From: Candidatus Bathyarchaeota archaeon
GTDB taxonomy: Archaea; Thermoproteota; Bathyarchaeia; 40CM-2-53-6
DNA length: 64,000 bases
Reading direction: 5' to 3'
Assembly (NCBI GenBank): GCA_963706285.1
Contig: CAVPLU010000004.1
Location: 352,001 to 416,000 of the forward strand
The position numbers and the translations under genes are program-made. This document shows positions 6,700 through 46,190 of the stretch, piece by piece; position 1 is the first letter of the stretch; each line of letters opens with the position of its first letter. Under the pieces are notes generated by a model, which was not told where the DNA came from, ran no database searches, and saw only the letters and a list, made by a program, of their open reading frames with translations.

Positions 6700-6843
6700 T
6701 GGTGCGGGGGGAGGGATTTGAACCCTTTCGTTCGGAATTCCGCTCAGGTTTTCCGAATCTCGAACCCCTACGGGACAGGAGCCTTTGGACGAGGTCTGTG
6801 ACCTCTCAGTCCTGCGCCTTTGACCTGGCTGGGCGACCCCCGC
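6700..6843 (-). tRNA. tRNA-Leu(GAG) with introns at 34/35 (6785-6806) and 51/52 (6725-6758)
   Basis: GCGGGGG/CCCCCGC acceptor stem, long variable arm, encoded CCA; BHB central helices GGAC/GTCC and TTCG/CGAA. Confidence 0.92.
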
Positions 6844-16096: not shown

Positions 16097-16189
16097 GCCT
16101 CGGTAGCTCAGCCGGTAGATGTCACAGCAGCCAAGAGCACCCGCCTCGTAAGCGGGAGGTCGCGGGATCGAAGCCCGCCCGAGGCTCCA
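16097..16189 (+). tRNA. tRNA-Thr(CGT) with D-arm intron at about 22/23 (16119-16135)
   Basis: GCCTCGG/CCGAGGC stem, CCCGC-CTCGTAA-GCGGG anticodon arm, encoded CCA; relaxed BHB. Confidence 0.92.
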
Positions 16190-17565: not shown

Positions 17566-17684
17566 GATCGTGAGCAGCGTCCCCGAATGAGTATGGCGAG
17601 AACCCGATCTGCAATATCAAGACAATGCTCATTGAGACCGATTCGGACTCTTTTTATTGAGATATTGCGTTCTGATCGCACAAT

Positions 17685-17814
17685 GGGGTCGTGGGCTAGA
17701 CGCCGTCTGCGTTCTAGGCGGCGGGCTTACCTGGTCTACGCTTCGCGGCTTGGGAGATTCCAGGAAATCCAGGAGCCCGCGAGGTCGTGGGTTCAAATCC
17801 CACCGACCCCACCA
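17685..17814 (+). tRNA. tRNA-Pro(TGG) with introns at 15/16 (17700-17729) and 37/38 (17755-17775)
   Basis: GGGGTCG/CGACCCC stem, encoded CCA; both BHBs fold. Confidence 0.93.
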
Positions 17815-19613: not shown

Positions 19614-19726
19614 TGGTGGACCGGGCGGGATTCGGACCCGCGACCTTCCGGTTCCTCGGGCAAAGCCTTGCGAACCGGACGTTCTTCGGCCCCATCCAAG
19701 GGCATACCAGGCTGAACTACCGGCCC
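19614..19726 (-). tRNA. tRNA-Ala(CGC) with introns at 21/22 (19685-19703) and 37/38 (19653-19668)
   Basis: G3:U70 pair, encoded CCA; both BHBs fold. Confidence 0.93.
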
Positions 19727-19874: not shown

Positions 19875-20006
19875 GGGCCTGTAGCTCAGCTTGGTGGAGC
19901 ACACGGCTGATATGCGGCTGTACTCCGCTTTGCCACCGTGACGGGTAAGGAACAGGTTCCTTTCCCGCGGTATGGGTCGCCGGTTCGAATCCGGCCAGGC
20001 CCACCA
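19875..20006 (+). tRNA. tRNA-Ile(GAT) with introns at 37/38 (19913-19934) and 43/44 (19941-19973)
   Basis: GGGCCTG/CAGGCCC stem, encoded CCA; ACCG/CGGT BHB helix. Confidence 0.93.
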
Positions 20007-32648: not shown

Positions 32649-33965
32649 GTGAGAATCCACTTAGGAATTGACGACACAGACTCGCTGGCAGGCGGATGCA
32701 CCACTAGAATTGCAGCAAATCTAGTTTCGATACTAGATTCGAAAGGAGTAGCCTTCCTAGACTATCCAAATCTCATCAGGCTCAACCCAAATGTCCCTTG
32801 GAAGACAAGGGGAAACGGAGCAGTCTGCCTCAGGATAGAATCGAACCTAAACACTGAGGAGGTCCTTGAGCTTGCTGCGGAAGAGATTGAGCGGAACGCA
32901 AGACTCGGCGACCCAGGCACAGATCCAGGCATCGTTGTGCTTGCGGGCGCAATCCCATCAGATCTTGAAGAATTCAGTAAAGAAGCGCTCACACGCGTTG
33001 TCACACCTCGCGAGGCGGTGTCTGCGATTTCGAGAGTCGGGGCCGAGGCACTGAGCTACGGCTCGATCCAAGGAATTGTCGGTGCACTCGCGTCGATCGG
33101 GATGCCATTAGAAGATGACTATACTTTCGAGTTAATTGCGTACAGGTCAGATGATTTCATTGGAAAACCGAGGCTCGTTGACAATGAGTCAGTGGTGCGG
33201 ATGAATAAGGAAATGGAGCAAGTCACATTCAACAATGTTGATCCGGAAACTGGAAGAATCCTAATCACTCCGAGAGGGTCCGATCCGATTCTATGCGGTG
33301 TAAGAGGAGAAAGCCCGGAGGCTGTACGCAAGGCATTTCATATGCTCAGAATCAGTGAACCAGTCAAGGCTTGGATGATCTTCAGAACTAACCAAGGGAC
33401 CGACGCCCATCTGACTAGGCGCTGCAGGATTGCAGAGCTGCAAGATCACTCGTCGATCGTCGTTGAAGGCACCGTGAAGGAGAAGCCTAGAACGATTCGT
33501 GGAGGTCACGTGATTTTCGTTCTTGAGGATGAAACGGGCTCGGTCAATTGTGCGGCGTATGAGCCTACAGGGAGATTCAGAGAGACTATTAGGCAACTGG
33601 AAGTTGGAGATCGAGTGCGGGGATTTGGAGGCATGAGATCCGCCGGCAAGTCGATCCCGAGGACTCTCAATCTGGAGAAGCTTGAGACTCTCAAGCTTGT
33701 TGCATGCACGCAAAGCCGCAACCCTGTGTGCCCAAACTGTGGAAAGCGAATGAAGTCAGCAGGCAGGAGACAAGGTTATCGTTGTGAACGTTGTGGAAGC
33801 CACGCAACATCGAAGGTCCAGCAAGAATCTAGTAGAGATCTTGTGAAACGAATTTATCTGCCGCCACCGAGAGCACATCGTCATCTAACGAAGCCGGAAG
33901 TCCGTTATTTGAGAACGCGCACGGAGATCAGCGGGCCGCCATCGCCGAAGTGGCATTTTCCGTGA
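32649..33965 (+). CDS. tiaS: tRNA(Ile2) agmatinylcytidine synthase
   Basis: GIDDTDS..GGCTT, RLNPNVPWKTRGNG, TNQGTD, OB fold, Zn ribbon, HLTKP. Confidence 0.95.
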   Translation: MRIHLGIDDTDSLAGGCTTRIAANLVSILDSKGVAFLDYPNLIRLNPNVPWKTRGNGAVCLRIESNLNTEEVLELAAEEIERNARLGDPGTDPGIVVLAGAIPSDLEEFSKEALTRVVTPREAVSAISRVGAEALSYGSIQGIVGALASIGMPLEDDYTFELIAYRSDDFIGKPRLVDNESVVRMNKEMEQVTFNNVDPETGRILITPRGSDPILCGVRGESPEAVRKAFHMLRISEPVKAWMIFRTNQGTDAHLTRRCRIAELQDHSSIVVEGTVKEKPRTIRGGHVIFVLEDETGSVNCAAYEPTGRFRETIRQLEVGDRVRGFGGMRSAGKSIPRTLNLEKLETLKLVACTQSRNPVCPNCGKRMKSAGRRQGYRCERCGSHATSKVQQESSRDLVKRIYLPPPRAHRHLTKPEVRYLRTRTEISGPPSPKWHFP

Positions 33966-34120
33966 TTACAATTTATCGGAGCATCCGAATGCCTGCGTGA
34001 TGGTCGCGTTTGCGATCTTCTCTTGCAGACGAGTATCGCTCGCTTAGTGCTTGGCTATTGTGGACTCTAGAAGATGCTGCGGCTTTCGCAAGATGGTTTG
34101 GTGGAGACGTTACGGACCAA

Positions 34121-34265
34121 TGGTATTCCCCCAGAACCGCTTTGCGCGGTTCTGTGCGGGGGGTGGATCTTCGGTCTTTCGTCAGACTTTCGAACCACCG
34201 ATCTCAGGGTTTCCCAGGAGGCTCATATGAGCCCTGCGGGTTAAACCTGGCTACCCCACCCCGCT
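34121..34265 (-). tRNA. Initiator tRNA-Met(CAT) with introns at 37/38 (34211-34225), 59/60 (34168-34188) and 71/72 (34126-34155)
   Basis: After splicing: A1:U72, AGCGGGG/CCCCGCT, three G:C pairs in the anticodon stem, TTCGAAT loop, ACCA end. Confidence 0.92.
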
Positions 34266-34313
34266 GTTCTGAGATCTCCGCACGTCTCCGAGCCAAGACT
34301 CTCATGTCCAGAA

Positions 34314-34326
34314 GTTAAAGGTTTTC
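34314..34326 (-). promoter_or_regulatory. Putative BRE/TATA promoter of tRNA-iMet
   Basis: GAAAACC TTTAAC, placing the start near 34289. Confidence 0.55.
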
Positions 34327-34706
34327 AGGATAGGTTAGGAAAGCTGTCGGCGAAAATCCACGGATTCAATCCGGTCGTTCGCCGACGATGCACACTGCCT
34401 CATCATTACTCATCCGGCGAGTCACTGAGTCTCTCATCATCGTCTTTGTGGTTATCTGGCCGCCGTCGGCCTAGTTAGGGCACAATTTGTTCCCGAGGCC
34501 TGAATCGTTTGCTCAAAAATGACCGTTTCAGGCTGCTGCCTGTGCTGCTGCGCTTGTTATAAGCTGTCAGGGACGTGTGATGCGCTGAGCTGTGCCGACT
34601 CTGATCAGCAGAGTGCCTGCAAATTAGGCGTTCCTCTATCAATTCCCGCATGATTCCTTAACGCTTTTTCATCCAGGGGTGTACTCATAGCCTCTGACTT
34701 GGTGCT

Positions 34707-46075: not shown

Positions 46076-46190
46076 TGGTGGACCGGGCGGGATTCGGACC
46101 CGCGACCTTCCGGTTTCTTGGTTGCTGCGTCATGCAAACCGGACGTTCTTCGGCCCCATCAGCGGGCATACCAGGCTGAACTACCGGCCC
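46076..46190 (-). tRNA. tRNA-Ala(TGC) with introns at 21/22 (46149-46167) and 37/38 (46115-46132)
   Basis: Exons match tRNA-Ala(CGC) except the anticodon; encoded CCA. Confidence 0.93.

Follow-up and report, generated by a model that had tools for sequence, protein, structure and literature searches.

A leader-trailer helix accompanies a 71/72 intron in the triple-intron initiator tRNA-Met gene of a Candidatus Bathyarchaeota archaeon

The initiator tRNA-Met (iMet) gene of a Candidatus Bathyarchaeota archaeon, located in a window of 64,000 nucleotides (the whole stretch of DNA that was analysed), is interrupted by three BHB introns, the last of which lies between tRNA positions 71 and 72, and it is flanked by a leader and a trailer that are complementary to each other outside the tRNA. 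The gene model is sound and the leader-trailer observation is real. The best available reading, in which we have moderate confidence, is that the flank helix would tether a terminal exon of five nucleotides after EndA cleavage and would also close the precursor. This tether may be combined with a role as an outer acceptor or in end protection. The transcript ends, the order of the processing steps, and the tether function are what we infer from the sequence.

The initiator tRNA-Met(CAU) gene occupies positions 34265-34121 of the minus strand and carries introns at 37/38, 59/60, and 71/72. From promoter to trailer, the locus consists of the following features:

34314-34327, minus strand: conserved promoter, BRE-like GAAAAC (34326-34321), then TATA-like CTTTAA(C)
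34277-34289, minus strand: 5' arm of the flank helix, GGAGACGTGCGGA; 90.3% mean pairwise identity
34266-34276, minus strand: leader spacer, GATCTCAGAAC; 93.9% identity, 2 of 11 columns variable
34226-34265, minus strand: exon 1, tRNA positions 1-37; A1 at 34265, anticodon CAT
34211-34225, minus strand: intron 1, 15 nt, at 37/38; type hBH
34189-34210, minus strand: exon 2, positions 38-59, from in-silico splicing
34168-34188, minus strand: intron 2, 21 nt, at 59/60; full hBHBh'
34156-34167, minus strand: exon 3, positions 60-71; 3' end ...CCCCGC
34126-34155, minus strand: intron 3, 30 nt, at 71/72; type HBh'
34121-34125, minus strand: exon 4, U72-A73-C-C-A; invariant in 10 of 10 sequences
34117-34120, minus strand: trailer spacer TTGG, variable; 66.1% identity
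34103-34116, minus strand: 3' arm of the flank helix, TCCGT-A-ACGTCTCC, with a bulged A at 34111; 88.7% identity
34095-34102, minus strand: ACCA after the helix, then AAC, a discriminator-plus-CCA look-alike; columns 219-225, 94.9% identity

Excision in silico of the stretches 34225-34211 (15 nt), 34188-34168 (21 nt), and 34155-34126 (30 nt) left a 79-nt tRNA-Met(CAT) that ARAGORN folded into a perfect cloverleaf, confirming the pre-tRNA-iMet with a 71/72 intron that the initial annotation had proposed. Archaeal initiators are distinguished by the anticodon CAU, an A1-U72 pair, and an anticodon stem whose lowest three pairs are G-C. All three hallmarks are present in the ARAGORN cloverleaf of the spliced sequence, which has A1-U72, CAU, and an anticodon stem closed at its base by GGG/CCC. 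The exons are 99-100% identical across the genus and match the orthologues of other genera. Since the predicted cuts give ...CCCCGC and UACCA, the last exon is five nucleotides long, and it restores the 3' end CCCCGCTACC, which is unbroken in the other-genus orthologues.

All three introns agree with the BHB definition given in a 2026 Asgard preprint, namely a central helix of 4 bp and 3-nt bulges containing the cuts, with at least one flanking helix, and the cuts restore the cloverleaf exactly. Each intron forms four of four central pairs and has its bulges exactly at the exon ends, and the central helices are 100% paired in the 10 sequences that were aligned. In intron 1, the central helix is CUCA/UGGG and the anticodon stem serves as the outer helix. 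Intron 2 combines the T stem, the central helix UUCG/CGAA, the bulges AA·A and GA·U (cut at the dot), and an inner helix GUC/GAC, in which the pair 134-146 covaries (UA n=5, GC n=4, GU n=1). Intron 3 pairs C66-C69 with GGGG, has the bulges GC·A and AA·U, and ends in a 9-bp inner hairpin; its central helix is invariant, and two pairs of the inner helix are altered on both sides.

ARAGORN detected no tRNA at all in the window, and the tRNA at the iMet locus was missed by ARAGORN, by Rfam, and by a permissive Rfam scan of 33900-34500. Rfam identified an archaeal rRNA operon, an RNase P RNA, and three intron-bearing tRNAs in the window. Further interrupted tRNA genes or fragments lie at 6703-6843, 16121-16186, 17684-17811, 19617-19726, 19875-20003, and 46079-46156. 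The whole genome yielded 17 Rfam tRNA hits at E<=0.01, and 14 full-model hits span 66-129 nt; for nearly all hits, the matched stretch is longer than an uninterrupted tRNA. As these hits are few and over-long, most tRNA genes of this organism are invisible to standard tools. Sub-threshold Rfam hits to several archaeal C/D-box sRNA families (E 0.7-7.5, 10-14 bits) were also found on the minus strand at 34345-34445, where two ATGATGA boxes stand just upstream of the iMet promoter; clear D boxes were not seen.

The initial annotation had also described a 13-bp helix between the two flanks, and this complementarity was confirmed, with one bulged A. The leader arm GGAGACGTGCGGA (34289-34277) pairs with the trailer arm TCCGTAACGTCTCC (34116-34103) through 8 bp, the bulged A at 34111, and 5 bp that include one G-U pair. 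The minimum free energy (MFE) fold of 34310-34085 contains the helix (-98.4 kcal/mol, z -5.3), and none of 200 shuffles was as stable. RNAduplex gave -28.0 kcal/mol for the 40-nt flanks versus -18.4 ± 3.7 kcal/mol for shuffles, 16 of 1000 of which reached the real value; on this sequence alone, the flank duplex exceeds chance only modestly. The flanks of 14 other tRNA hits in the same genome gave -7.9 to -19.8 kcal/mol (z -1.9 to +1.5), and none of them has a comparable helix below z -2. A genome-wide scan for inverted repeats, using 8-nt seeds 90-280 nt apart, a limit of <= -22 kcal/mol, and crude promoter and T-loop filters, reduced 7393 seeds to 947 scored, 590 merged, and 16 kept candidates. 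With these coarse filters, no second independent clamp was found, and by eye only iMet had a flank-flank helix outside an acceptor stem. Inspection excluded a BHB inside the helix or the TTGG/CCAA region.

All 10 distinct sequences carry both the helix and the 71/72 intron; they belong to one genus of Candidatus Bathyarchaeia and comprise 8 genus genomes and 2 metagenome sequences. Among 41 related genomes, a full-length match was present in 7 of the 9 other genomes of the genus, the two without a match being 77% and 69% complete, and the whole family sample of 59 genomes contained no further carriers. Flank duplexes of the genus range from -24.5 to -33.5 kcal/mol, with z-scores of -1.8 to -4.8, in 8 of 8 genomes. 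Each of the 23 other-genus orthologues lacks both the helix (z -1.5 to +0.8) and the 71/72 intron, and these genes have introns elsewhere. Scans of genome and metagenome contigs with 15-nt patterns, which were too short and gave chance matches, covered 237 loci among the matches listed, of which 5 were tRNA-like upstream and 3 were real orthologues, 1 of them a duplicate; the two further distinct metagenome sequences came from these scans, again among the matches listed. A gapped pattern scan of the species collection returned 45 stretches (6 genes with the 71/72 intron, 4 normal iMet genes, and 35 other tRNAs), and it revealed no second lineage with this intron, all 6 genes being from the same genus set. 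Since the carriers all belong to one lineage, the co-occurrence represents a single evolutionary event.

Covariation in the helix was assessed in an alignment of the 10 distinct sequences from the one genus. Ten of the 13 pairs are invariant, one is altered on both sides (GC n=8, AU n=1, GU n=1), one is altered on one side only, and the remaining pair has three unpaired cells. Overall, 95.3% of the cells are paired, and three central positions hold 6 unpaired cells. Covariation being thin, differential conservation is the stronger argument: the arms have mean pairwise identities of 90% and 89%, versus 77.3% for the promoter spacer, 72% for intron 2, and 66.1% for the trailer spacer, and the sequence beyond the unit, upstream of the promoter block and past R-CCA-AAC, is unalignable. 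The initial annotation had called for leader-trailer covariation across orthologues with and without the intron; the co-occurrence in 10 of 10 sequences and the absence in 23 of 23 agree with it, while the covariation itself comes down to one compensatory pair in one lineage. Orthologues having the 71/72 intron and lacking flank complementarity, which it had named as evidence to the contrary, do not occur among the 10 sequences.

The arms could in principle be a leftover of the rearrangement that created the 71/72 intron, or their similarity could reflect a young genus, with no role in maturation. The single lineage and the minimal covariation are what such a neutral origin predicts. It is nevertheless improbable, as the arms stay near 90% identity and 95.3% of the cells stay paired, while adjoining unconstrained stretches have fallen to 66-77% and the outer flanks cannot be aligned. 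In addition, the arms are single-copy in the genome and so are not a repeat element. An origin from a repeat or mobile element was examined separately and rejected, the arms and introns matching the genome elsewhere over <=17 nt only (E >= 0.15).

The position of the promoter indicates where the transcript would begin. The promoter block GAAAACMTTTAAC is kept in 8 of 8 genus orthologues, and TTTAAC at 34319-34314 is invariant in 10 of 10 sequences. TTTAA ends 49 nt short of A1, and the first G of the helix (34289) is reached after 25 nt. A TATA-like pentamer is recognisable in 7 of 12 other tRNA genes and ends 24-30 nt before +1, and the iMet leader is about 20 nt longer than the leaders of these other genes. 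These distances, 25 nt to the helix against 49 nt to A1, point to a leader of about 24 nt that probably begins with the helix, so that the transcript probably starts at its first G, at about 34289. This supports the proposal of the initial annotation that the TATA-like box sets the start at the helix, and the start within the leader arm that it had named as contrary evidence disagrees with the spacing.

The same annotation had suggested an extension of the helix by TTGG/CCAA. The complementarity of 34296-34293 with 34101-34098 is present in this sequence, but the extension is unsupported: it has no compensation, its 4 pairs depart solely through unpaired cells, and, because promoter spacing puts the start at the first G of the helix, it probably lies upstream of the start.

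How the helix might act in maturation follows from the position of intron 3. The precursor would begin at about 34289 with its three BHB introns, from a single-copy iMet locus. Intron 3 divides the 3' acceptor strand after C71 and would leave UACCA as the last exon. As long as intron 3 is folded into its BHB, C66-C69 would be bound to the intron and the acceptor stem would be impossible. Once EndA has cut, the piece consisting of UACCA and the trailer would have only U72-A1 available for pairing with the tRNA body. The helix of 13 bp, contributed by the 24-nt leader and the trailer, would close the precursor and keep this piece attached until RtcB joins C71 to U72, and RNase P and the 3'-end machinery would then strip leader and trailer. 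Initiator tRNA is essential. The gene has a single match in this assembly (2.13 Mb, 89% complete), and with one copy of an essential tRNA the cell must therefore join a 5-nt exon that pairs by a single base pair.

In predicted folds, the three BHBs and the helix are nested and compatible, with -69.1 kcal/mol versus -47.1 kcal/mol without the helix, which thus contributes about -22 kcal/mol. A fold constrained to keep the BHBs and the helix gave -75.9 kcal/mol and the unconstrained MFE was -92.5 kcal/mol; the MFE fold differs from the all-BHB fold (-69 to -76 kcal/mol), which counts against the tether. In a two-piece fold of the RNA cut at 71/72, the acceptor stem G2-G7/C66-C71 and the helix both form, and the helix provides the sole intermolecular pairs. 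The two pieces associate with -18.7 kcal/mol when the real trailer is present, with -1.9 kcal/mol when UACCA is alone, and with -7.3 ± 3.2 kcal/mol when the trailer is shuffled, 1 of 100 shuffles matching the real one. With introns 1 and 2 removed, the association was -18.6 kcal/mol, a value reached by 0 of 100 shuffles. The suggestion that the helix holds UACCA for ligation, made in the initial annotation, is thus favoured by co-occurrence, promoter spacing, and the two-piece fold, and weakened by the single lineage and the one compensatory pair.

The genome encodes two EndA-domain frames (200 and 181 aa) and RtcB, and the RNase P RNA lies in the window. The RtcB match, on the minus strand of contig C4 (105729-107043), is distributed over two adjacent, slightly overlapping frames: one of 281 aa covers profile positions 1-243, the other, of 226 aa, covers 236-426, and the arrangement may represent a frameshift, a misassembly, or a split gene.

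Of 6 RNA-library runs that matched with small shares, 4 were compared with the locus, and 1 of these gave contigs (n=3). An 85-nt contig, identical to the window over 34273-34189, still contains intron 1, and its end coincides with the final base of exon 2. A relative contributed a contig of 225 nt that has introns 2 and 3 unspliced and extends beyond the trailer by another 101 nt, which makes DNA or read-through a possible source. The third contig covers part of a distant iMet gene. No spliced joint was seen at the locus in the contigs of the 4 runs, although contigs cannot show absence, their ends are not RNA ends, and they may include DNA carry-over.

The tether leaves the invariant leader spacer and the R-CCA-AAC element unexplained, and this points to functions beyond it. 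Directly 3' of G34289-C34103, the terminal pair of the helix, stands ACCA (34102-34099), and the aligned sequences share R-CCA-AAC in 10 of 10 cases (A or G, invariant CCA, and AAC), with conservation stopping there. This outer R-CCA after the 3' arm is a new observation of this analysis. Taken with the start position, it gives the helix the appearance of an outer acceptor stem that carries a discriminator and CCA; as judged from the sequence, the minihelix-3'-NCCA geometry is present (G34289-C34103, ACCA), and the promoter spacing agrees. With the helix at the transcript start and R-CCA after it, the precursor ends would be tRNA-like, with a stem of 7-8 bp, a discriminator, and CCA. Enzymes of tRNA end processing and CCA repair might then define or protect the precursor ends, tethering being a by-product or a second role. 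We regard this account as rather unlikely. R-CCA stands directly 3' of the last pair in every sequence, the first G of the helix is 25 nt past TTTAA, where the +1 of other tRNA genes sits (24-30 nt), and CCA is encoded in all 18 tRNA genes listed for the organism, so that 3' ends must be matured after an encoded CCA. Against this, the CCA consists of three bases, invariant within a single lineage, AAC is just as conserved and is left unexplained, and the RNA-library contig of the relative extends 101 nt past this point.

Leaders that copy the 5' acceptor strand, which accompany 5'-proximal introns, also favour an acceptor-like role of the flanks. Within the order, 10 of 105 genomes, from three genera and three families, have an iMet gene with a first exon of 4 nt (AGCG) and a 4/5 intron (loci L318-L327, genomes G028, G030, G033, G036, G038, and G075-G079). 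In 10 of 10 of these genes, the 5' acceptor strand recurs in the leader as RGCGGGG, which by eye lies 24-25 nt past TTTTAA in L318, L323, and L324. The 4/5-intron iMet genes of the other families show no leader-trailer complementarity (z -0.06 to -0.82). Their central BHB helix with the downstream AGCG covaries (CTGC, CTGT, CTAC, and CTAT). In the genome studied here, a leader copy was seen by eye in 3 of 4 tRNA genes with a 5'-proximal interruption, and none of the 12 genes whose 5' end is uninterrupted has one. The tRNA genes with leader copies have an intron in the first 8-13 positions and lie at C12:81738-81794 on the minus strand (copy GCCGGGG), at C12:74265-74322 on the plus strand (copy GGGCGGG), and at C4:264357-264530 on the plus strand (copy GCCCGGGG). 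In addition, other-genus iMet leaders of the family (L015-L017, L023-L028) end in ...CGCTT..TTGT or CCCCGCTTGT directly before A1, and these leader ends could fold back onto the 5' acceptor strand.

These patterns suggest that providing surrogate partners for the acceptor strand is a routine role of flanking sequences in these archaea, although the leader copies could instead reflect how 5'-proximal introns arise. A more general, tentative proposal is that in this Bathyarchaeia lineage the flanks provide a surrogate acceptor end whenever a BHB intron occupies or splits an acceptor strand, by a leader copy in the case of 5'-proximal introns and by an outer stem with R-CCA in the case of 71/72. 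If this were true, the precursor would be a tRNA-like shell with ends matured or protected by ordinary tRNA enzymes and with short terminal exons held in place. RNase P and 3' processing would remove the shell only once splicing is complete, and it would constitute an undescribed layer of pre-tRNA architecture.

The leader spacer suggests yet another function. Its segment GATCTCAG is fully complementary, over 8 nt, to tRNA positions 41-48 (CUGAGAUC, 34200-34207), and the pairing of GATCTCAG with CUGAGAUC in MFE folds costs the anticodon stem. The helix and the conserved leader might accordingly steer a fold that presents the BHB of intron 3, without selection for exon retention. By this route, the 5' acceptor strand would be kept off C66-C71 early, or intron removal would be ordered. 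We assign this little probability in either form. MFE folds do stack the helix on the leader-exon 2 helix (GAUCUCAG with 41-48) and form BHB2 and BHB3, not the acceptor stem; the leader spacer is 94% conserved; and the 85-nt contig retains intron 1 and stops at the end of exon 2, contig ends being weak evidence. The exon partner of the leader spacer, however, is invariant, 8 nt of complementarity to the gene is not unusual by chance for a leader of 24 nt (estimated at a few percent), and the outer helix of BHB1 is lost when the leader pairs with exon 2. A pairing of the leader CAGAAC with GTTCTG of intron 3 was also considered and was rejected, as compensating changes are absent.

If the flank helix enables joining of the last exon, the locus would show the extent to which a tRNA gene can be fragmented in cis, and it would provide a mechanistic link from cis introns to split and permuted tRNAs. 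It would also offer gene finders a signature for terminal-exon introns, which ARAGORN and Rfam missed here. The locus offers a clean in-vitro system for asking whether base pairing must hold the exons for RtcB to ligate them.

In the main-text passages and search listings covered, we found neither an intron at 71/72 that leaves a last exon of 5 nt nor a flank helix serving a cis intron or a terminal exon; the 2026 Asgard preprint places its acceptor-stem cases in Supplementary Note 3. Several known systems share parts of the arrangement. Split tRNAs, as described for Nanoarchaeum, Caldivirga, Aeropyrum, and Staphylothermus, are joined from halves through complementary leaders that form a BHB (PMC4033280, PMC4090602, PMC3218864). 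The iMet locus shares with them complementary non-tRNA extensions that, as proposed here, hold pieces for EndA and the ligase. Unlike split genes, which have separate loci and promoters, it is a contiguous gene with one conserved promoter, and a single transcript provides both pairing partners, its leader and its trailer; the helix is separated from the tRNA ends by 8-11 nt and has no BHB, and the splice site is a separate cis intron.

In permuted tRNAs (Cyanidioschyzon; iMet and Tyr of Thermofilum pendens), leader and trailer pair with a BHB, as described in sources that include PMC3218864 and PMC3978253. T. pendens iMet is described in PMC3218864 as having an over-long distance from promoter to gene, a break at 59/60, and a canonical intron. 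The pairing of leader and trailer of one transcript is common to both, but the exon order of the present gene is the normal 1-2-3-4, unlike that of permuted genes, and its leader-trailer helix has only a single 1-nt bulge, so it contains no BHB and a circular intermediate is not expected. Archaeal pre-rRNA stems, in which BHB motifs are cut by EndA (PMC7714728), likewise place a long helix between the flanks of a mature RNA within a transcript; the iMet helix differs from them in having no BHB.

The multi-intron tRNAs of Thermoproteales, Thaumarchaeota, and Asgard archaea have up to three BHB introns, for example at 59/60, and a 3/4 intron is cited as an extreme case (PMC4090602). For gene finding, tRNAscan-SE 2.0 extends candidates by 60 nt to catch near-end introns (PMC8450103). 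The iMet gene resembles the multi-intron tRNAs in having three BHB introns, one of them at 59/60, within one gene, and the locus as a whole is a variant of known disrupted-tRNA architectures.
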